In this document: one piece after another, positions 1 to 15,874 of the stretch | Position numbering within the stretch: position 1 is the first letter of the stretch | Layout of the letters: every line of letters starts with the position of its first letter | NCBI GenBank assembly: GCA_964014485.1 | Contig: CAXHAT010000180.1 | Location: 1-15,874 of the forward strand | Direction of reading: 5' to 3' | Origin: an uncultured Deferribacteres bacterium | GTDB lineage: Bacteria; Zhuqueibacterota; Zhuqueibacteria; Zhuqueibacterales; Geothermadaptataceae | DNA: 15,874 nt | Position numbers and translations under genes: made by a program | The notes under the pieces: model-generated | Databases searched by the model: none | What the model saw: the letters and a program-made list of their open reading frames with translations, nothing else | What the model was told of the DNA's origin: nothing

Positions 1-1080
1 AAGGCCGCATCGATGGAGTTGTTGGTTTCGCCGCTGGCGATGGTGACGGGGTCGGTTTGGTTATTATTGTTCGGATCGTAATCCGAGTCGAGTTCATCGT
101 CCGCGCCTTGATCCTTGTCGCAAGTTTCGAAGCCGTTCGGGGTCGGGAACTTGACGATATAGGTTCCGGGCTGAACGTTGAAGCAGTACTCGCCGTTGGC
201 GTCAGTCGTCAAGGTCGAGTTGCCGTCGAGATCGACAATCGGGTTGCCGTTAGCGTCGCAGAGCTGAACCGTCGCGCCTTGAATCGGGGTTTCGCCGTTC
301 TGGAAAACGCCGTCGCCGTTTTCATCGGACCAAACGAAATTACCGAGCTTGGCGGGCTGGAAGAAGCACGCGTCCACGGAATTGTCCGTTTCGCCGCTGG
401 TCATGGTGATGACGCCAGTCTGGTTGTTGTTATTCGGATCGTAATCCGAGTCAACCTGATCGTCCGCGCCCTGATCCATCGCGCAAACTTCATAGCCGTT
501 TGGCGTGGGGAATTTGACGGTGTAATCACCGGGCGCAACGAAGAAGCAATATTCGCCGTTGGCGTCCGTCGTCAACGAAGAATTGCCGTTCAAATCGGCA
601 ACCGAAGCGCCGTTGGGGTCGCAAAGTTCAACCGTTGCGCCTTGAATGGCGGGCTCGCCGTTGTCAAAAACACCGTCGCCGTCCAGGTCTTCCCAAACAA
701 AGTTGCCGAGCTTGGCTTCCTGGAAAAAGCAAGCGTCGATATCGTTGTTGGTTGCGCCCTGAGCGATTGTGATCGGATCAGTTTGGTTGTTGTTGTTCGG
801 ATCGTAGTCCGAATCGACCGTATCATCAACGCCCTGATCTTTCGCACACGTTTCGTAGCCGTTCGGGGTCGGGAACTTGATGATGTAGGTTCCGGCGTCA
901 ACGAAAAAGCAGTACTCGCCGTTCACATCTGTGGTCAATGAAGAATTGCCGTTGAGGTCGGCAATCGGATTGCCGTTGGCGTCGCAGAGCTGAACCGTCG
1001 CGCCTTGAATCGGGGTTTCGCCGTTATCGAAAACGCCGTTGCCGTTCAAGTCTTCCCAAACAAAGTTGCCGAGCTTGGCT
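1..1080 (-). repeat. Intragenic tandem repeat, 363-bp (121-aa) period, about 3 copies visible; a more diverged SdrD-B unit precedes them at about 1085-1455
   Basis: The anchor CCGAGCTTGGC recurs at 343, 706 and 1069, exactly 363 nt apart. Each copy contains DSDYDPNNNNQT. Confidence 0.93.
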
Positions 1081-3347
1081 TGAGAAACCAGACCCATGTC
1101 GAGGGAGTGCAGGTTGTGGCCCGCCGCGCCCGTCGAGAAGGCGATGGTTGCATAACCGGGGTTGGTCGTATCGTCCGCATCGGAATCGTGCAGATCGGAG
1201 CCTTGGTTGGCGATCGTCAGATTTTCGCAGCTTGCCGCCGCCAAACCTGCGTCGTTCAAATCAACGCGGATTTCATAATCGTTCGCGTTGTAGTCGAGAC
1301 CGCTGAAAAAATAATAGCCGCTGCCGTTGGTCGTCGTGGTCGTGACTTGAGAGCCGCCTTGCCACAATTCAACCGTCACGTTGGCGATACCGGATTCGTT
1401 CGGATCCTGGACGCCGTCTGCGTTGTCATCGCACCAGACATAGTTGCCGACTTCGATGGCCGCCGGGGGAGCGAGCGGTTCGAGATCGCCAAGACCGTTG
1501 CCTTTGCCGAAGGTGAGCGGATCAGCGCCGTCGGTGTCATAAACACGGTAGCCTCTTGCCGTGGCGCCGCTGTTATTGTCGAGCCACAAAATACCGCCTT
1601 CAAAGAAATTGGCGGCCAGGTTGATCGGATCGTAGACCGTCATCATAACTTGATCGAAACCCGGCATTTGAGCCAGACCGCCAAGAGACGTTTCATTGTG
1701 GTTGCCGAGATAGCGTTCTTCAAAATAGAATTCACCGTTGCCGGGGCCCTGGCCGTTTCCGGCTCCCGCGGAAGGACCAAAAGTTGAACCGGCTGCGTTG
1801 CTTTCTATCGTCCAGGTTCCGCCGTTCGGGCTGGCGCGGAGAACGTCGCCGCCGGAATCGACAATTGGCAACCCGCCGCCCTGAGGAGGCATTTGATTGT
1901 AACCGCCCTGGTCGCCCATACGGTCACGAATACCGATGATCATGTCGCCGCGATCAAATTCAATATCGCTCAACCATGGCTGCGGATAGCCGACTTCGCC
2001 GTTGGTGGCGTCGGAAATCAATGCCGTGTCCCAAACCGGAACCCAGGGATTCCATTCGCCGTCGGTCACGCCGCCGAAGTTTTCGATGTGTTCGCGCGCA
2101 TAATCAAGAGGGAAACTCAAAACTTGCGCGAAAACTTGCGTTGAAGGATCGAAAGAATAAACATAACCGCGCAGTTGCGTACGGTCGCCGGTGTTGGTAA
2201 TCGTGTTGCCGGTGTTGGCAACCGTCGATTGCGCCGTGCCGGTCAGGCCGACATAGACGAGACCGTCGTGGAAGGCGAGTGCGAATGGTCGAATGTCCTG
2301 ATCGCGTTCCGCCGCCGTGCCGAGCAGTCCGGAAAGGTCGGTCATGTCCGAGCCGTCCGTGTCAAACGGCCAACGGCTGATCTGCGCCGCAGTTGGAGCG
2401 GTTGGAGATGACGCGTCCGTTCCCAGGGGAATCTGATAGAGCTGACGGTCGGTCAAATTGATCGCCCATATGGTCAATTCGTCGTCGGAAATATCGATAT
2501 CGCCAAGAGATGCTTTGCCGACTTCATCGAACGAATTAGGATCGAGGGTGAAATTGGTCGCCGCCGGATGCGGATCCGCGCCCGCCGTTCCAGCGCCGAA
2601 CAATGCGTTCAGATCGAGAAATGTGGAAACGGTGCTGGAGTTCATGTCAACGCGATAGATCGCGCCCGTGCCGCTCGGTCCAAAGCCAACGTGGCGTTTC
2701 ATAAATGCGCCGGCAAAAAGGCTGTTGGACGTACGCTGGTGCGCGAGACCCCACGTCGGACCGACCTGGCTCGCGACCGCCGCAACGCCGTGCGCCGGAG
2801 ACGTGCCGCCGGGAGGAGGAGAGCCAGCGTTATCGGGAAACGTGGCCAAAACGTCGCCGTTGCTGACAAGGTTGTCGCCGGTGACGTAGCAGTTTGTGAC
2901 CATCGTAATCGCGCCGGTTCCGGGGGCCAAAAACACGTCCGCCGGATTCGACACGCCGAAATTAACACCGGTACTTCCGCCGTTGACGAACTTGACCGTA
3001 CCGCCGCCGCCAGCCGCCGGAGCGGGTTGAAGAAACGAAGGCAAGCCGGTGAGTTCAACGCGGAAAGCCGCCGTACTGCCGACAGTCAACGTGTACGTGC
3101 CGTCAGCCGCGGACGTCACTTGATCAATGAGTGTATTGGTTGCGTCATATGCTGAAACGGTGAGACCGCCCTGTCCAATTTCTGTGGCGGTTTGGAAGGT
3201 TCCGTTGCCGTTGTAGTCGCGAAAAACGGTTCCGGAGACAGTTTGCGCTTGAGCGAGAGCCGGAGCGCAAGCCATCAAAAAAAGTCCGAGCCAAAAATAG
3301 CCCGTTTTACAGAATCTCTGGATGTGTTCCATCGTTTTCTGCTCCAT
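1..3347 (-). CDS. Large secreted SdrD B-like repeat protein (putative adhesin/surface protein); 3' end runs off the window
   Basis: Hand translation from ATG 3347 (alternative ATG 3332, GGAG upstream): MEQKTMEHIQRFCKTGYFWLGLFLMACAPALAQAQ (signal peptide), then TVSGTVFRDYNGNG, a middle region with VGPTWGLAHQRTSNSLFAGAFMKRHVGFGPSGTGAIY, and repeats of the type AKLGNFVWEDLNGNGVFDNGE...TTDANGEYCF...DSDYDP...IDA. The same frame is still open at position 3 (about 1,115 codons). The ORF track lists no minus-strand ORF in this frame, consistent with no internal stop. Confidence 0.93.
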   Translation of the reverse strand, partial: MEQKTMEHIQRFCKTGYFWLGLFLMACAPALAQAQTVSGTVFRDYNGNGTFQTATEIGQGGLTVSAYDATNTLIDQVTSAADGTYTLTVGSTAAFRVELTGLPSFLQPAPAAGGGGTVKFVNGGSTGVNFGVSNPADVFLAPGTGAITMVTNCYVTGDNLVSNGDVLATFPDNAGSPPPGGTSPAHGVAAVASQVGPTWGLAHQRTSNSLFAGAFMKRHVGFGPSGTGAIYRVDMNSSTVSTFLDLNALFGAGTAGADPHPAATNFTLDPNSFDEVGKASLGDIDISDDELTIWAINLTDRQLYQIPLGTDASSPTAPTAAQISRWPFDTDGSDMTDLSGLLGTAAERDQDIRPFALAFHDGLVYVGLTGTAQSTVANTGNTITNTGDRTQLRGYVYSFDPSTQVFAQVLSFPLDYAREHIENFGGVTDGEWNPWVPVWDTALISDATNGEVGYPQPWLSDIEFDRGDMIIGIRDRMGDQGGYNQMPPQGGGLPIVDSGGDVLRASPNGGTWTIESNAAGSTFGPSAGAGNGQGPGNGEFYFEERYLGNHNETSLGGLAQMPGFDQVMMTVYDPINLAANFFEGGILWLDNNSGATARGYRVYDTDGADPLTFGKGNGLGDLEPLAPPAAIEVGNYVWCDDNADGVQDPNESGIANVTVELWQGGSQVTTTTTNGSGYYFFSGLDYNANDYEIRVDLNDAGLAAASCENLTIANQGSDLHDSDADDTTNPGYATIAFSTGAAGHNLHSLDMGLVSQAKLGNFVWEDLNGNGVFDNGETPIQGATVQLCDANGNPIADLNGNSSLTTDVNGEYCFFVDAGTYIIKFPTPNGYETCAKDQGVDDTVDSDYDPNNNNQTDPITIAQGATNNDIDACFFQEAKLGNFVWEDLDGDGVFDNGEPAIQGATVELCDPNGASVADLNGNSSLTTDANGEYCFFVAPGDYTVKFPTPNGYEVCAMDQGADDQVDSDYDPNNNNQTGVITMTSGETDNSVDACFFQPAKLGNFVWSDENGDGVFQNGETPIQGATVQLCDANGNPIVDLDGNSTLTTDANGEYCFNVQPGTYIVKFPTPNGFETCDKDQGADDELDSDYDPNNNNQTDPVTIASGETNNSIDAA

Positions 3348-3708
3348 GATGTTGTTTAACAAAGATGATTTTCCTCCATGGAACTTACAGGCCGTAACTC
3401 TCCCTAGTGGGCCCGATACTTTGCGTCGTGGCATGGATCATTCATGGGCAGATCCCGGCTCCCCCGCAATGAACAGTCGTCGCCAAATTTCCGCTCTTTG
3501 CGTGTGTTGCCGGTACATTCATTCCGATGTTTTCAGCAAGGCGAATGCGTACGTCACCCTGGTCGTCGCCAAAGTCTCAGCGTGACTTCCTCGCCGGACG
3601 ATTCATCGTGTGAACAACCGGATTTTATCAGTTGCGTGCTTTTTTTAGACCATAGCGCCTCCTGAGTTTCTTCTTGTGGTTGTTTGCCTTGCAAAGGTTA
3701 TTTGTTTT

Positions 3709-9578: not shown

Positions 9579-9992
9579 TTAACGAATGAAAAATATTTGG
9601 AAACGCCCGGTCTCTGCAATAGGATCAAATTCATGGTGGTCGGAAGTGATCAACTCAGCTTGTAATCGATTCGTCAACGCCAGAGCGAAGCAATCGGCGA
9701 GTGATATTTTTCTGATTTCCGCTTTGTATCGTCCGGCCGTCATCCAAAATTCCGAATCCATATCATCTCTTTTAGTCACGCCGCTTTCGATTAAATCCTG
9801 AATCGCGGTTTTGGCGTTTTTCGCATTATCTGTTTTGAGAAAATCGTAATAGACTTCGCACAGATTTACCGCATGTGCAAAACATTCCACGCTTTGATCT
9901 TTCAAGAGCGTTTTGACTACTTCCGCTCCGTCCTCTGCTCTAAGATAAGCGAGCATCGCACAAGCGTCCAGAACTTTACGAGAAGTTTTCAC
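9579..9992 (-). CDS. vapC: PIN-domain toxin, VapC family (137 aa)
   Basis: VLDACAMLAYLRAE, NLCEVYY, ISLADCFALA and LITSDHHEF carry the conserved PIN acidic residues. The GTG start overlaps the upstream TGA. Confidence 0.92.
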   Translation of the reverse strand: MKTSRKVLDACAMLAYLRAEDGAEVVKTLLKDQSVECFAHAVNLCEVYYDFLKTDNAKNAKTAIQDLIESGVTKRDDMDSEFWMTAGRYKAEIRKISLADCFALALTNRLQAELITSDHHEFDPIAETGRFQIFFIR

Positions 9993-10240
9993 CCTTCCCT
10001 CGCGATTTCTTCCTGCTTTCGCAAAGCAAATTCTTCGCTGCTTGTTTGTACATGAGCGTATTTCCCGCAGATGGCTTCAATTTTTGCAGCTTTTTCCGAA
10101 GAAGTCGAGCTGCTTGATTGCATCTTGAGCCGCAAATGCCCGGAAATCTCGGTGATTAAACGCAGTTGTTCTTCTACGGACAAAGCGTCAAGCAATTGGA
10201 TGGCTTGTTGATATTCTTGTGACGCCGCAAATGAATTCAT
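9989..10240 (-). CDS. Putative antitoxin cognate to VapC (83 aa)
   Basis: Small helical ORF translationally coupled to the PIN gene. GGAGG RBS; C-terminus GKYAHVQTSSEEFALRKQEEI. Confidence 0.8.
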   Translation of the reverse strand: MNSFAASQEYQQAIQLLDALSVEEQLRLITEISGHLRLKMQSSSSTSSEKAAKIEAICGKYAHVQTSSEEFALRKQEEIAREG

Positions 10241-10304: not shown

Positions 10305-10441
10305 GAGTTGAAGCCGTTTTGGAAGCTCAATCTCTGAGGCTGGCGCAATTTCCAAAGCGTCGTTATATACGATTTGTATTTCTTCCGCTCATTCTTTATC
10401 CAAATCCAACGTTTATCTCAATTTAACGCTTGGAGGAAAAG

Positions 10442-13400
10442 ATGGCTCGCCTTTCAAATTTCATCAAGTCTTTGTTTTTTCGATTTTTGCTTATCACAGT
10501 CGTTCTGTTGTCTATCGGAACTGAAGCGCTGGCGCGGCAGGAGAAGAACGTTTTCGATCCGTCTCTGTTCAGCGCGATGAAGTGGCGCAACATTGGGCCG
10601 TATCGCGGCGGTCGCTCGACGGCGGTGCATGGCGTACCGACGCAGCAATTTGTTTACTACATGGGCGCGACCGGCGGCGGCTTGTGGAAAACGACCGACG
10701 GCGGCACGTCCTGGAACAATGTTTCCGACGGCTTCTTCAAAACCGGCACCGTCGGCGCGATTGCCGTCGCGCCGTCCGATCCGAACGTGATTTACGTCGG
10801 CATGGGTGAGGCGCAGGTGCGCGGCGTGACGACCTCGCACGGTGACGGCGTTTATAAATCTCTCGACGCAGGCAAAACCTGGACGCACATTGGTCTGGAA
10901 AAATCCTGGCAAATTTCCACCGTGCGCGTGCATCCGCAAAATCCTGATCTGGTCTACGTCGCGGTGCAAGGCAATTACTGGGCGCCGAACCCGGAGCGCG
11001 GCGTCTATCGTTCAAAAGACGGCGGCGATACGTGGGAACAAATTCTTCATATCAATGAAAAGGCGGGCGCGAGCGATCTTTCGATGGACGCCAACAACCC
11101 GCGCATTTTGTACGCCGGGTTTTGGGAGCACCAGCGCCTGCCGTGGAAAGTGAACAGCGGCGGCGAGGGCAGCGGCGTTCACAAATCCGTCGACGGCGGC
11201 GATACGTGGAAAAAACTGGAAGGCGGTCTGCCGGATTTCATGGGCAAAGTCGGCGTTTCGGTTTCTCCGGCCAATTCCGAGCGCGTGTGGGCGATTGTCG
11301 AAGCCGAAGAAGGGGGGCTTTTTCGCTCGGACAACGGCGGGAAGAAATGGGAGCGCGTCAACAAGCAGCGCGTGCTGCGGGCGCGTTCGTGGTACTACAC
11401 CAAAGTTTTTGCTGATCCGGTCGATGAAGAAACGGTTTACGTGCTGAACGCGCCGGTGATGAAATCGGTGGACGGCGGCAAAACCTTCACCCAAATTCAG
11501 GTGCCGCACGGCGACAACCACGATCTCTGGATCAATCCCAACAACAACAAATGGATAATCAACGCCAACGACGGCGGCGGCAACGTGAGCTTTAACGGCG
11601 GCAAATCCTGGTCGACGCAAACCAACCAGCCGACGGCGCAGTTTTACCGCGTTATCACCGACAATCAATTTCCCTACAAAGTTTACGGCGGCCAGCAGGA
11701 CAATTCGTCCGCGGCGGTGCTCAGCCGCACCAGCGACGGCGGCATCGGGCGCGAAGACTGGCATCCCGCCGGGGGCTGCGAGAGCGCGTTTCCAGCCTTC
11801 GATCCCGACAATCCCGTGCTGGTCTACGCCGGGTGCTACCAGGGCATCATTTCCGAGTACAACCACGCCACGCGCTCGACGCGCAGCATCATGGCGCATC
11901 CCTATCTCGGCCTCGGCACGGACGCCAAGGACAACAAATATCGCTTCAACTGGAACGCGCCGATCTTTGCTTCGCCGCACGATCCTTCGGTGATTTATCA
12001 CGCAGGCAACGTGCTGCTGAAAACCGAAGATCGCGGGCAAAGCTGGACGGAAGTCAGCCCGGATTTGACGCGCAACGAAGTCTCGAAACAGGGCAAGGGC
12101 GGCGGGCCGATCACCAACGAAGCGGCCGGGGCGGAGACCTACAACACGATCATGTACGCCGCGGAATCGCCGCACGAGCAAGGCGTGATTTGGGTGGGCA
12201 CGGACGATGGGCTGGTGCATCTCACGCGCGACGGCGGGGAAAATTGGGCGAACGTCACACCGAACGCGGTGGGCGAAGCGCTGATCAATAATATCGAAGT
12301 TTCGCCGCACGATGCGGCGACGGCTTACATAGTTGTTGCGGGCTACAAATTGAATGATTTCTCGCCGCACATTTACAAGACCGCCAACTACGGCAAAAGC
12401 TGGACGAAAATCGTCTCCGGCATTCGCGAAGACACGTTCGTGCGCGCCGTGCGCGAAGACCCGAAGCGCAAGGGCTTGCTCTACGCCGGAACCGAGGCCG
12501 GGATGTTCGTCTCCTTTAACGACGGCAAGCAGTGGCAGGAATTTCAGCTCAACCTGCCGGTCACGCCGATCACCGATATCACCATCCGCCGCGACGATCT
12601 TGTTGCCTCAACGCAAGGGCGTGCGTTCTGGATTCTGGACGATTTCACGCCGCTGCATCAATTGACTGACGAGATTGCGAAAAAATCGGCGCACTTGTTC
12701 AAGCCGCGCAAGGCGTTCCGCATGCCTGGCGGCGACGGCAAGATTCCGGGGCAGGGGCAAAACCCGCCGAACGGCACGATCATTTACTACCATTTCACCG
12801 AAGCTCCTGACACGACGAACATCGAAGTTAAGCTCGAAATTCTGGACGACTCCGGCAATCTCGTACGCACGTTTTTGACGAAAAAAGAAGACGACGAGAC
12901 CGCACCGGAAGACAAGCTGTTGCCTGTGAAGAAGGGCATGAACCGCTTTGTTTGGGATTTTCGCACCGAAGGCTACGTGCGCGTGCCCAAGCTTTTCGTC
13001 TTTGGCAGTCCGTCGGGTTACCGTGTTGCGCCGGGGACTTACACCGCGCGTCTGACGGTCGATCACGAAGTCCAGTCGCAGGAATTTGAAGTGGCGCACG
13101 ATCCCAGACTCGACGCAACGGCTGCGGAATTTGCTGAATACTCGCGCCTGCAAGCCGAATTGCTTGCCAGTGTGAATGAAATTCACGCGGCCGTGAATAA
13201 AATGCGCTCGGTGAAAAAGCAAGTGGCGGCGTTTGCGGAACTCTCCGGCGACAGCGATGAAAACAAAAGCCTGAAAGCGCTGGGTGATTCATTGACTCAA
13301 GAACTAACGGAACTGGAAGAAGAAATCGTACAGCCCAAACAGGAGACCTTCCAGGATGTGATCAATTTTCCCAACAAACTGAACGCCAATTTTGTCTACT

Positions 13401-13588
13401 TGATGGGCTTGGTCGACGAAGCCGGTGCGCCGGTCACCCAAGGCGCCAAAAACCGCGCGCAGGAATTACAGAAAAAGTGGAGTGAAATCCGCGCGCGCAT
13501 TCAATCGACGCTGAAAGGTGAAGTCGATGCTTTTAACCAAGCGGTAAGAGAAAAGGCGGTTCCGGCGGTGGTTGTGCCGAAGGAATGA
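10442..13588 (+). CDS. Secreted BNR/Asp-box beta-propeller protein (VPS10/sortilin-like, GH74-like 'glycosyl hydrolase'; 1,048 aa)
   Basis: Signal peptide, [11 protein letters not shown] start, many S/T-x-D-x-G-x-T/S-W Asp-boxes, C-terminal Ig-like ([10 protein letters not shown]) and helical regions. GGAGG at 10432-10436 precedes ATG 10442. Confidence 0.92.
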
Positions 13589-13604
13589 TGAAGCGGCAGG
13601 TCGG

Positions 13605-13795
13605 ATTACGGTGCAAATGAGATTGTCTTGGGAAAAACTACGACTTGATTTACCCACCCCTAACCCCTCCCAAGATGGGAATTTGGCGACCGCGAAGCGG
13701 TCGAAGAAATCCCCTCCAGGGAGGGGACAAAGGGGTGGGTTTTGAGCGTAGAAGCAATCTCGATCCATTCGGTTTTGCATAGACTTATGGGTAAG
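13605..13795. repeat. 'Empty' 191-bp unit: left end A + cloverleaf core (13641-13748) + right end B
   Basis: A matches 13884-13919, B matches 14572-14619, and the core matches the two cores flanking DUF559. Confidence 0.9.
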
Positions 13796-13919
13796 AGTTA
13801 ATCGAGGGCCGGAACCAAGATGTGGGTGAGATGATATTTCAAATTCGCTGAGTATTTGCATTAATGCAAAAAAGCTTCCAGAAATTACGGTGCAAATGAG
13901 ATTGTCTCGAGCAAAACTT

Positions 13920-14025
13920 CGACTTGGTTTACCCACCCCTAACCCCTCCTCGGAGGGGAATTGCGTGACCGCGAAGCGGTCGGAGAAATCCCCTCCCAGG
14001 AGGGGCAAGGGGTGGGTTTTGAGCG
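13920..14025. repeat. Cloverleaf/REP-doublet core, copy 2
   Basis: The ACCCACCCCT/AGGGGTGGGT stem encloses CCCCTCC-TC-GGAGGGG, GACCGC-GAA-GCGGTC and CCCCTCC-CA-GGAGGGG. Confidence 0.92.
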
Positions 14026-14072
14026 ATTCTCAAAATCACTGAATCGTCTAATTTGGAAAACAATGCCATAAA

Positions 14073-14438
14073 ATGAACCCCAAAATCATTCCTTACAATC
14101 CGAAACTCAAGGAACGCGCTCGTGAACTTCGCAAAAACAGCACGCTTGCTGAGGTATTGCTTTGGAACCATCTCAAGCGAAAACAAATGCGCGGTTATGA
14201 CTTTGACCGCCAAAAGCCAATCGATAATTACATTGTTGATTTCTACTGCAAGAAATTAATGCTGGCCATTGAGATCGATGGTATGAGCCATGCCGAAAAG
14301 AAAGATTACGATGTAAAACGCCAGGGTAGATTAGAATCGCTTGGCGTTCGGTTTCTGCGCTTTTATGATTGGGGCGTCAAGAATAACATGCCGGGCGTTT
14401 TGCAGAGGATTGAGTCGTGGATTTTGGAGAATGAGTAG
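14073..14438 (+). CDS. DUF559 endonuclease-domain protein (Vsr-like, restriction-endonuclease fold; 121 aa)
   Basis: Family-typical motifs ARELRKNST.AE.LLW, F.RQ.PI..YIVDFYC, LAIEIDG.SH, YD..RQ..LE.LG.RFLRF. Confidence 0.93.
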   Translation: MNPKIIPYNPKLKERARELRKNSTLAEVLLWNHLKRKQMRGYDFDRQKPIDNYIVDFYCKKLMLAIEIDGMSHAEKKDYDVKRQGRLESLGVRFLRFYDWGVKNNMPGVLQRIESWILENE

Positions 14439-14465
14439 AGAATGAGAATGCTGAGTGGGAAACGC

Positions 14466-14571
14466 CGACTTGGTTTAACCCACCCCTGGCCCCTCCCAGG
14501 AGGGGATTCCCGGCGACCGCTTTGCCGTCGCGTAACTCCCCTCCAGGGAGGGCAAGGGGTGGGTTTTGAGC
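14466..14571. repeat. Cloverleaf/REP-doublet core, copy 3
   Basis: ACCCACCCCT (14478-14487) / AGGGGTGGGT (14555-14564) enclose CCCCTCC-CA-GGAGGGG, an imperfect GCGAC..GTCGC hairpin and CCCTCC-AG-GGAGGG. Confidence 0.92.
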
Positions 14572-14655
14572 ATAGAAGCAATCTCGATCCATTCGGTTTT
14601 GCACAGACTCATAGATAAGGATCAGCTTTGAAGGAAGAACTTTGGACGCTTCGGT

Positions 14656-14904
14656 TTAGGCTTTCGTGGAGAATGATTTCGGCTGCCATTGGTTTATAAA
14701 ATTCCTGGCTTCTTGTACGCCTTGGATTTCCGCATCAGTCCAAACTGAAGTAGATAAGAGTTTTTTCTTCCAATCTTCTTGTCCGTTTGCTAGCTGATCC
14801 TGGACAGACGATTGCTCTTGCTTTAGCAACTGCAACAATGCTTTTTTCTTGTTGAAAGGCAAGGCGTCGATTTGCTGCACAATTTGTTGTGTCAGAGCAT
14901 CCAT
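14656..14904 (-). CDS. Small hypothetical protein, antitoxin-like (82 aa)
   Basis: AGGA upstream of the ATG. N-terminal pattern (QQIVQQIDALP...LLQLL) resembles the antitoxin at 9989-10240 (QQAIQLLDALS...LRLI). TA-rich context. Confidence 0.6.
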   Translation of the reverse strand: MDALTQQIVQQIDALPFNKKKALLQLLKQEQSSVQDQLANGQEDWKKKLLSTSVWTDAEIQGVQEARNFINQWQPKSFSTKA

Positions 14905-14959
14905 AGTGAAGTTTTCCTGAAAAGCGGGCGACCTGCGTGTTCGTTACCCATGAAACAGA

Positions 14960-15202
14960 TCAAGCAGTTTTTGAAGCAGCGGACTTTTTAGCATTCTTTT
15001 TGCTTTTCAGATAAGCTGATCCCCGATATTTATCGAGAACACGATTGGCTTCGTGGTCAAAAAATTCATCTTCGCAAACTTCGCATTTTTGGCGGGACAC
15101 CTGAGGAATTGTCACTAGCCCGCCGGGAGTTTGGAATTTCATTTCTCCAGAGATTTTTTTGATACGGTCTGAGTGACACATTGGGCATACGGTAAGTAAC
15201 AT
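14960..15202 (-). CDS. YgiT-type zinc-finger protein (MqsA N-terminal-like, no HTH; 80 aa)
   Basis: CPMC...VTIPQV...CEVCEDEFFD: two CxxC motifs with family-typical spacing, directly downstream of a toxin-like gene. Confidence 0.85.
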   Translation of the reverse strand: MLLTVCPMCHSDRIKKISGEMKFQTPGGLVTIPQVSRQKCEVCEDEFFDHEANRVLDKYRGSAYLKSKKNAKKSAASKTA

Positions 15203-15211
15203 GGTCTTTTC

Positions 15212-15527
15212 TCAAAAAGTTGAGCGTTTTGATGAAATCAAGACATAAAGCGTCTCGACGCCGGCGGCGCTCTTGTGAATTTTGCCTTTCGTGTAGATCA
15301 ACAACCCGTCATAAGTAAAGCTTTCGATCACGTACAGCTTTTCTCGCTTTCCCGTTCCGGGATTTTTGGAGCGCAGGGCTTTATTGACGCCGTTTGCATT
15401 TAAAAATGGATTCAAGCACGTCGCCTTCCGTCAATCCATCGGCAAACATCTCGGTTTCGGCTTTGAGGGTAAAACTATACTGCTTGTTGATAATGAGACG
15501 CTTGATCCTTTTTAGAATAGTTTGCAT
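15212..15527 (-). pseudogene. Frameshifted DUF4258-like putative toxin (104 aa if repaired)
   Basis: ATG 15527 gives MQTILKRIKRLIINKQYSFTLKAETEMFADGLTEGDVLESI. This joins LNANGVNKALRS...LIYTKG...YVLISSKRSTF if one T is removed from the T5 run (A5 at 15402-15406). The span is 316 nt (3n+1). Confidence 0.75.
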
Positions 15528-15827: not shown

Positions 15828-15874
15828 CTGTCTCTTATACACATCTCCGAGCCCACGAGACTCCATTGCATCTC
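15828..15874 (+). other. Illumina Nextera adapter read-through (artefact)
   Basis: CTGTCTCTTATACACATCT-CCGAGCCCACGAGAC, 8-nt index position TCCATTGC, then ATCTC (start of the P7 side). Confidence 0.99.

Follow-up and report, generated by a model that had tools for sequence, protein, structure and literature searches.

The window, the whole 15,874-nt stretch of DNA analysed here, is contig C180 of an 8.4-Mb assembly of 465 contigs. It carries three palindromic cores of about 105 bp, at 13641-13747, 13920-14024 and 14466-14571, downstream of a host gene, with a small DUF559 gene (PF04480, Pfam E 2.7e-32; ORF 14073-14438) placed between cores 2 and 3. The cores fold better than 200 shuffles (z = -7.0 to -9.6), and a profile built from the three found 21 places in the genome and 0 in the reversed genome. 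The features of the locus are as follows.

10430..13588, plus strand: upstream host gene for a Sortilin-Vps10/BNR repeat protein; the repeats start 16 nt past its stop
13605..13801, plus strand: unit 1, gene-less (A, forward unit, central hairpin, reverse unit, B)
13605..13651, plus strand: flank A of unit 1, 42/47 identical to the A of unit 2
13652..13679, minus strand: triplex-type unit F1, with a minus-strand purine third strand; two stem mismatches, decayed
13711..13740, plus strand: triplex-type unit R1, with a 7-bp hairpin, 5-nt loop and mirror third strand
13741..13801, plus strand: flank B of unit 1, ending in a right terminal inverted repeat of IS4 type (13782-13801)
13802..13883, no strand: unique spacer, unlike both outer flanks
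13884..14625, plus strand: unit 2, filled (A, core 2, leader, DUF559, A remnant, core 3, B)
13931..13958, minus strand: triplex-type unit F2, intact
13990..14017, plus strand: triplex-type unit R2, intact, with a gene-facing third strand; conserved upstream end of the cassette
14073..14438, plus strand: DUF559 gene, 121 aa, Vsr/EDxHD-like nuclease fold; the only PF04480 match of the genome
14441..14477, plus strand: diverged flank A remnant preceding core 3
14478..14505, minus strand: triplex-type unit F3, intact, with a gene-facing tail; conserved downstream end of the cassette
14538..14564, plus strand: triplex-type unit R3, one G lost
14565..14625, plus strand: flank B of unit 2, ending in a right terminal inverted repeat that has decayed (14606-14625)

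Much of the layout proposed in the initial annotation was confirmed: three cores (given as ~106 bp), the DUF559 gene between copies 2 and 3, a core-to-core spacing of 547 bp, and an arithmetic in which removal of that interval from the 736-bp filled unit leaves 189 bp, against 191 bp for the empty one. The 88-bp spacer between the units (13796-13883) has no second match anywhere in the genome, and a Pfam scan of 11 window ORFs agreed that neither a transposase nor an integrase is present among them; no methyltransferase was found among the ORFs scanned either. Some points needed revision. Copy 1 carries both flanks and copy 2 carries A, as described, but copy 3, said to have B only, is preceded by a segment (14441-14476) that aligns ungapped with the last 36 nt of A (25-26/36 identities; 15/25 over the first 25 nt of the match, shuffle p 0.0002). 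Copy 3 thus retains part of A, and the direct repeat around the gene is about 130 bp. The ~106-bp core is not the basic unit but a head-to-head pair of ~28-nt units. Elsewhere in the window lie small toxin-antitoxin-like genes at 14656-15415 (a YgiT-type zinc finger, TIGR03831, and two unnamed neighbours), a toxin-antitoxin-like PIN-domain gene with a small partner at 9579-10240, and, on the minus strand at 3-3434, a gene truncated by the start of the contig, whose large secreted product has SdrD B-like repeats.

Since the assembly is fragmented, with adapter at contig ends, the duplication might be an artefact, which had been named as a finding that would overturn the original reading. Logan contigs from two runs of one study span copy 1, the spacer and copy 2 with 0 differences (X1, 13654-13960; X3, 13649-13932), the best-covering run possibly being itself the source of the assembly. 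Contigs of X2 and X3 link core 2 to DUF559. No RNA run was listed for the locus. Among the pieces listed none links the gene to core 3, and run X1 has no cover at 14040-14403, a gap that may be a filter effect. Because the copies differ by 11-21% and contigs of two runs cross the junction between units 1 and 2, the arrangement is not a collapsed or duplicated assembly, and we regard an artefact as very improbable indeed. The contig end itself (15828-15874) is sequencing adapter, which we take to be Nextera and which lies within 120 nt of an end in 139/465 contigs. The final ~100 nt of the Vps10/BNR gene recur at 88% on contig C392 of this genome (G000, 1310-1546), where a decayed unit and a B arm come after them; all three runs contain this arrangement, and the gene fragment may be DNA carried along with the element.

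In each core, two inverted ~28-nt units stand head-to-head around a small central hairpin, and elsewhere in the genome such units also occur tail-to-tail and singly. A unit consists, in order, of a pyrimidine arm, a 2-nt loop, a purine arm, a 3-5-nt loop and a G-rich strand that is the mirror image of the purine arm, T standing opposite A. From this arrangement, each unit is predicted to be able to fold, when single-stranded, as a class II intrastrand triplex made of a 7-bp hairpin and a mirror purine third strand. By eye, five of the six window units conform to the ITxF rule (three stems of 6-15 nt, loops of 1-6 nt, triads G-G-C, A-A-T and T-A-T), the exception being F1 with its two stem mismatches; the units that flank the gene are the intact ones. 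The third strand covaried with the arm over six arm types: after tails had been pre-filtered for 5 or more G in 14, 160 of the 285 distinct pairs gave 7/7 triads with their own arm, whereas pairing with the arm of another type was perfect in a mean of 17 (maximum 28) of 285.

Repeats of the BoxC/PIT/TM kind were already known in E. coli in the 1990s, and hundreds of genomes contain them. In the parts of Holder et al. (2015, PMC4666352) available to us, they are described with the same anatomy, a C-rich arm, short loop, G-rich arm, short loop and mirror G-rich third strand, and as intergenic, often paired in inverted orientation, variable between strains and prone to collapse from a pair to one hairpin. 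The window units differ from the TMECO consensus of that work, which has 9-nt stems and for which those parts name no mobilising gene, in having 7-nt stems and a DUF559 gene between them. The long-stem form is a sister type, which we found beside other DUF559 clades and E. coli ycjD. On these sequence features the window repeat is to be classed as a short-stem member of the BoxC/PIT/TM kind and not as a new family.

Within the genome the family is small, with 18 exact hairpins of the window's type. Perfect triplex units number 42 for three other arm types against 11 for the window's type, and there are 29 hairpins of another type, yet a single DUF559 gene. The commonest repeat genome-wide (~200 copies) resembles the NTS/SRM consensus, as far as that is given in the available part of PMC11893778. 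By a crude ORF call, 5/15 sites of the window's hairpin type and 10/20 of the sister type lie inside long open frames (C114, C269, C24, C78 and C210 among others). Rfam returned no match near gathering score for the repeat locus, promoter and terminator scans gave counts not above shuffles, and an exact-pattern scan of metagenome contigs for the window core gave 0 matches. In a search of mobile DNA, viral contigs yielded 4 weak partial matches, phages 2 records and plasmids 17 records, several of them chromosome-sized. An integron attC site was considered and dropped as cores 1 and 2 were seen by eye to have no conserved AAC end. A reading of A and B as the two inverted arms of a single long hairpin was also abandoned: the fold pairs them, but 857 of 2000 shuffles align as well.

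The 121-aa DUF559 protein was modelled with a pLDDT of 91.9. Foldseek matched the model to 3hrl, to the homing endonuclease I-Bth0305I (3r3p, E 8.8e-5) and to Vsr (1cw0, E 0.025), and residues D56, E67, D69, H73 and D80 were invariant in 24/24 sequences. DUF559, Vsr and 3r3p are placed in one group within the PD-(D/E)XK superfamily (PMC3424549, as excerpted), and Vsr-like proteins can act as homing endonucleases according to the portions consulted of PMC2677866 and PMC3239194. The protein is a single domain encoded by an intergenic gene and has no N-terminal DNA-binding extension; its homodimer prediction scored 0.37 against a mark of 0.42 and was given no weight. It has no match to the Pfam Vsr family, which, with no methyltransferase among the scanned ORFs, sets it apart from Vsr, an endonuclease of mismatch repair. 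DUF559 genes are under purifying selection, with a median dN/dS of 0.079 on the 9 unsaturated of 28 beta pairs (19 were dropped as saturated) and 0.11 on one further pair; the delta pair was saturated. Nucleases of the PD-(D/E)XK/Vsr type hydrolyse DNA through no covalent intermediate and cannot religate it. With such a fold the locus is not an autonomous transposon, and host repair must complete any move. The autonomous/non-autonomous mobile system first suggested finds no support in the locus itself either, where the units have a right-hand inverted repeat only and flanks with no direct repeat, that is, no target duplication.

We then looked at the pairing of gene and repeat across 217 pooled loci (59 drawn from the window's phylum, 78 from species in GTDB and 80 from metagenomes), of which 196 were distinct and 165 had full flanks; these are close homologues and not independent. 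With a detector tuned after the loci had been viewed, a tailed hairpin lay within 250 nt of the gene at 150/165 DUF559 loci against 21/283 control ORFs of the same loci, and on both sides at 101/165 against 1/283. A simpler, untuned detector gave 100/121 for one side and 49/121 for both (controls 11/208 and 0/208). No unit was found at 15/165 loci. Units numbered 5-6 per kb near the gene and thinned to about 0.1 per kb within 2 kb, and polarity was mostly consistent, the tail pointing toward the gene for the nearest upstream unit in 89/121 cases (13 ambiguous) and for the nearest downstream unit in 107/130 (11 ambiguous). The enrichment of flanking repeats and the repeat/protein co-phylogeny that the initial annotation had put forward as checks were thus both observed: repeat type changed 18 times on the protein tree, against at least 52 times in 100 shuffles (FastTree, 109 columns, many open forks; 169/196 rows labelled), although kin share labels and the agreement is therefore not proof of co-evolution. 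In the sample from the window's phylum, four repeat types sat on separate branches, and the type found in the window reaches across Bacteroidota, Cyanobacteriota, Planctomycetota, Nitrospirota and others. Of 61 related genomes, 7 had at least 5 exact window-type hairpins and 6 of these 7 a gene of this clade; G004, G007 and G027 have 24, 20 and 45 hairpins of another type and no match to the window's protein. These data support well the conclusion that DUF559 genes are bracketed by these repeats strongly and clade-specifically. Several DUF559 domains also lie in frame within proteins of ~1000-1500 aa, mostly with flanking hairpins (G029:C24, G043:C4, G043:C5, L145), and at L010 (800-2600) a doublet array encloses DUF559 and another small ORF in a cassette-array-like arrangement.

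The above findings suggested a selfish cassette of nuclease plus repeat, and this is the reading we lean towards, going by sequence and model: a putative structure-specific nuclease whose cuts would drive host recombination at hairpins. The minimal cassette would be a repeat unit, DUF559 and an inverted repeat unit. The protein would recognise the folded unit of its own clade and nick or cut at or near it, and host repair or recombination between hairpins would then copy, invert, amplify or delete modules. Several observations count against it: repeats are present without a matching gene in this and other genomes, the hairpin family here is small, some DUF559 loci have no unit, the link with copy number is modest in the genus of G142 and the sites there also take other cassettes (see below), and an IS4-type element inserting into hairpins could move some copies.

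The last of these leads to the flanks. A-like and B-like flanks are present on dispersed copies (C116, C297 and C24), and they are therefore parts of the element and not unique target DNA. B extends to 13801 and 14625 and closes with a 20-nt terminal inverted repeat common to other small elements of the genome. That inverted repeat occurs in five paired copies elsewhere, enclosing 205-283 bp; four of the five hold other palindromic cargo, and an 8-9-bp duplication was seen by eye at three. Ends related to B surround a decayed IS4-family transposase in G133. The locus thus resembles miniature elements of the IS4 family (Tn5/IS50-like, NF033590) in flank B alone, by comparison of its last 20 nt with the G133 repeats, and unlike them it has no left repeat, target duplication or transposase; in our model the right arm B would come from such an element. 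An earlier candidate, the end of an abundant IS701-type element, was rejected, since the motif was not abundant (3 found, 4 expected) and proved different, of IS4 type. Ends of the IS4-type element and of its miniature derivatives often lie in loops of triplex-type hairpins (L397, L069, L071, L399; G000 contigs C228, C61, C165, C42 and C297), with a 9-bp duplication at the L071 copy, and by its sequence this element can be described as a repeat-targeting insertion sequence.

DUF559 might then be a passenger, the repeats being spread by a transposase of IS4 type, by a RAYT or by slippage of the host at triplexes. The IS4-type end of B and the paired copies with other palindromic cargo point that way, as do repeats present without a cognate gene, and Holder et al. 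attribute the variability of TM sites to the structure itself (PMC4666352, in its available parts). But a clade-specific repeat and a fixed polarity over more than ten phyla are not what a passenger would keep, and the units flanking the gene are just those that stay intact. None of the 7 Y1 transposase matches in the genome has these hairpins within 600 nt, PF01797 (Y1_Tnp) has no match on this contig, and NF033590 has none over cut-off in this genome. We consider a passenger role rather improbable.

A further question is how unit 1 relates to unit 2. The unit 1 core is nearer to core 2 (83/96) than to core 3 (77/97), and its B matches the B beside core 3 at 45/54, other genomic B copies reaching 31-39 of 54-56. 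Diagnostic positions side with core 2 until the reverse hairpin, and with core 3 from there or just beyond. Unit 1 is thus composed of A, core 2 and B, the make-up expected of an empty sibling, with one crossover, as read from these alignments; it would be the gene-less sibling of unit 2, linked to it by a single crossover within or beside the reverse hairpin, our best guess for the site being R1 (13711..13740). Cores 2 and 3 are alike in only 75/95 positions (79%) while core 2 matches the dispersed copy C297 at 86/95; each is closer to C297 than to the other, and they do not stem from a recent duplication of one target. The spacer is unique and matches neither outer flank, which argues against a plain tandem duplication of unit 2, a possibility that we discarded. 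Loss from a copied filled unit, and gain by one of two empty copies from a donor circle, would leave the same pattern.

The gain could take the form of homing, a nuclease making a double-strand cut in an empty core that the cassette enters, or of a 547-bp circle (one core and the gene) integrating there. Unit 1, with A, a core 2-like core and B, beside the outlying core 3 and A remnant, fits a donor circle that integrated at the core's right end. Long direct repeats surround the gene at 40/168 loci and inverted ones at 6, the module is local in two genomes checked, and one tail-less hairpin remains in three empty S2 sites (below). The fold, too, is that of I-Bth0305I, a dimer that cuts a pseudo-palindrome (PMC3239194, in part). 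Against this, deletion yields the same pattern; the filled allele keeps its hairpins intact, so the target would not be destroyed as homing requires; the protein has no DNA-binding extension of the I-Bth0305I kind; and third-strand covariation points to a single-strand structure. The circle junction that the initial annotation had proposed to seek did not appear among the read-derived contig pieces listed, where the sole joint near the locus (13586 to 13751) stems from the look-alike on C392. This route has, in our estimate, a small probability. A third module lay within 1.5 kb at 8 of the 40 loci with a long direct repeat, and the three opened (L117, L134 and L191) were tandem arrays, so that L117 was withdrawn as a second case of empty beside filled; the arrays resemble BIME amplification beside tnpA-REP in the part of PMC3333891 seen.

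The initial annotation had proposed a search for empty and filled versions of orthologous sites. For this locus, no congeneric genome was found among 60 relatives, and in genus g4 sites were shared (G003/G008) or not syntenic; the proposed polymorphism was seen in another genus, that of G142 (record L103, Pontibacter; 61 genomes), at two sites with the best 30 loci examined for each. At S1 (29 examined, 27 with both flanks), 13 were filled by three clades in two orientations: 2 by the window's clade, 10 by a second clade (1 forward, 9 reversed) and 1 by a third. The S1 empties held third-type repeats only (4), another gene (6) or nothing (4). At S2 (17/30 with both flanks), 7 were filled, again by three clades, and a single tail-less hairpin was left in 3 empties. 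Over both sites there were four DUF559 clades, each with its own repeat; all are DUF559, the other clades being 35-46% identical to the window's protein, compared with 61-64% within its own clade. The empty L321 equals the filled L324 minus 543 nt, with the junction in the centre of a hairpin loop. The presence of several clades at one site requires several gains. One clade is kept at S1 in ten genomes, and the same clade is found at three different sites in three congeners. Many copies carry stops.

Other arrivals were noted at these sites. A GIY-YIG gene between CGTC-type repeats (L310:2139-3017, G145) occupies the site of the L103 DUF559 cassette, and L360 has a GTAG-type doublet at S2, so that such intergenic sites may serve as landing places in general. 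At one site, a single DUF559 clade is found in either orientation between its inverted repeats (L317 versus L320, L326, L330-L332, L334, L336, L338 and L342), possibly by inversion through hairpin recombination, and the upstream unit of L316 is an apparent hybrid, with the left half of one repeat type and the tail of another, as if one cassette had entered a hairpin of another type.

Hairpin copies in this genus had a median of 11 in the 21 genomes with the gene versus 6 in the 40 without (p 0.006), and 10/40 genomes without the clade had at least 20 hairpins. This weak link, the purifying selection on the gene and the retention of one clade at S1 in ten genomes could also mean that the putative nuclease recognises the repeat but serves the host, for example by cutting repeat-bearing incoming single-stranded DNA like SsnA, and spreads neither repeats nor cassette. 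The gene architecture is as in NTS-ssnA-NTS, where cleavage limits transformation (PMC11893778, available part). Such service would need repeated gains to account for four clades at two sites in both orientations and for three congeners at three sites, and the many copies with stops are as expected of selfish DNA; we think it unlikely, though worth keeping in view.

Among known systems, compared through the available parts of the sources, the locus seems by analogy to work most like Ssn with its NTS/SRM repeats (Chenal et al. 2025, PMC11893778), although its fold is not that of Ssn. Both have a gene for a small single-domain hydrolytic nuclease, oriented hairpin-plus-tail repeats that are also dispersed, and clade-specific nuclease-repeat pairs. 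They differ in fold (GIY-YIG for Ssn, Vsr-like PD-(D/E)XK for DUF559), in repeat (a CGTC-tagged hairpin for SRM, a triplex-type unit here) and in evidence, activity having been shown for Ssn, whose hallmark is to cut single-stranded DNA alone in a sequence-specific way, while DUF559 is known here from sequence and model. Ssn/SRM, and not the RAYT-REP named in the initial annotation, is the closest working analogue. REPtrons (PMC3333891, PMC3733652) resemble the DUF559 system in that each family has a single enzyme gene with inverted repeats on its flanks, doublets occur in either orientation, tandem amplification is local, and gene loss is precise and spares the repeats. However, RAYT, an HUH tyrosine enzyme, both cuts and rejoins DNA, whereas the DUF559 protein is PF04480 and has no HUH/Y1_Tnp domain, REPtron palindromes are GTAG-tagged and the window units have, by eye, no GTAG end, and E. 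coli REPtrons stay at one locus while DUF559 cassettes occupy many. With the EDxHD homing endonuclease I-Bth0305I (PMC3239194, PMC2677866), the protein shares the fold of the catalytic domain and the superfamily group; unlike it, the protein has no N-terminal DNA-binding repeats, and its gene lies not in an intron, intein or fractured gene but between dispersed repeats.

The E. coli K-12 protein YcjD is 39% identical to the window's protein, and a TMECO match lies 168 nt past the ycjD stop; BoxC adjoins fabI there. The function of ycjD is treated as unknown in the consulted part of PMC12817139. TM sites have been linked to local instability, with no mobilising gene found and mechanism and origin left open in what was available of Holder et al. 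(PMC4666352). We found no description of a DUF559-BoxC/triplex pairing in the literature, subscription papers and supplements aside; the flanking-gene table of PMC4666352 may list ycjD. A broader proposal, which we put forward tentatively as rather less likely than not, is that DUF559 proteins including YcjD would be clade-specific, putatively triplex-recognising nucleases, the long-missing agents that create and move BoxC/PIT/TM repeats by transposase-free cut-and-repair spread between hairpins, with the present locus as a before-and-after pair.

The pairing of DUF559 with these repeats is real and widespread, and the mechanism proposed for it is our reading of the sequences. A candidate enzyme makes BoxC/PIT/TM mobilisation testable with one 120-residue protein, short oligonucleotides and E. 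coli K-12 (ycjD). If the proposal is true, a function would be assigned to DUF559, and HUH (RAYT) and GIY-YIG (Ssn) would be joined by a third fold, unrelated to either, that has a palindromic repeat of its own. Should the enzyme read the triplex, nature would have supplied a triplex-specific nuclease in many sequence variants, of use as a tool for single-stranded DNA.
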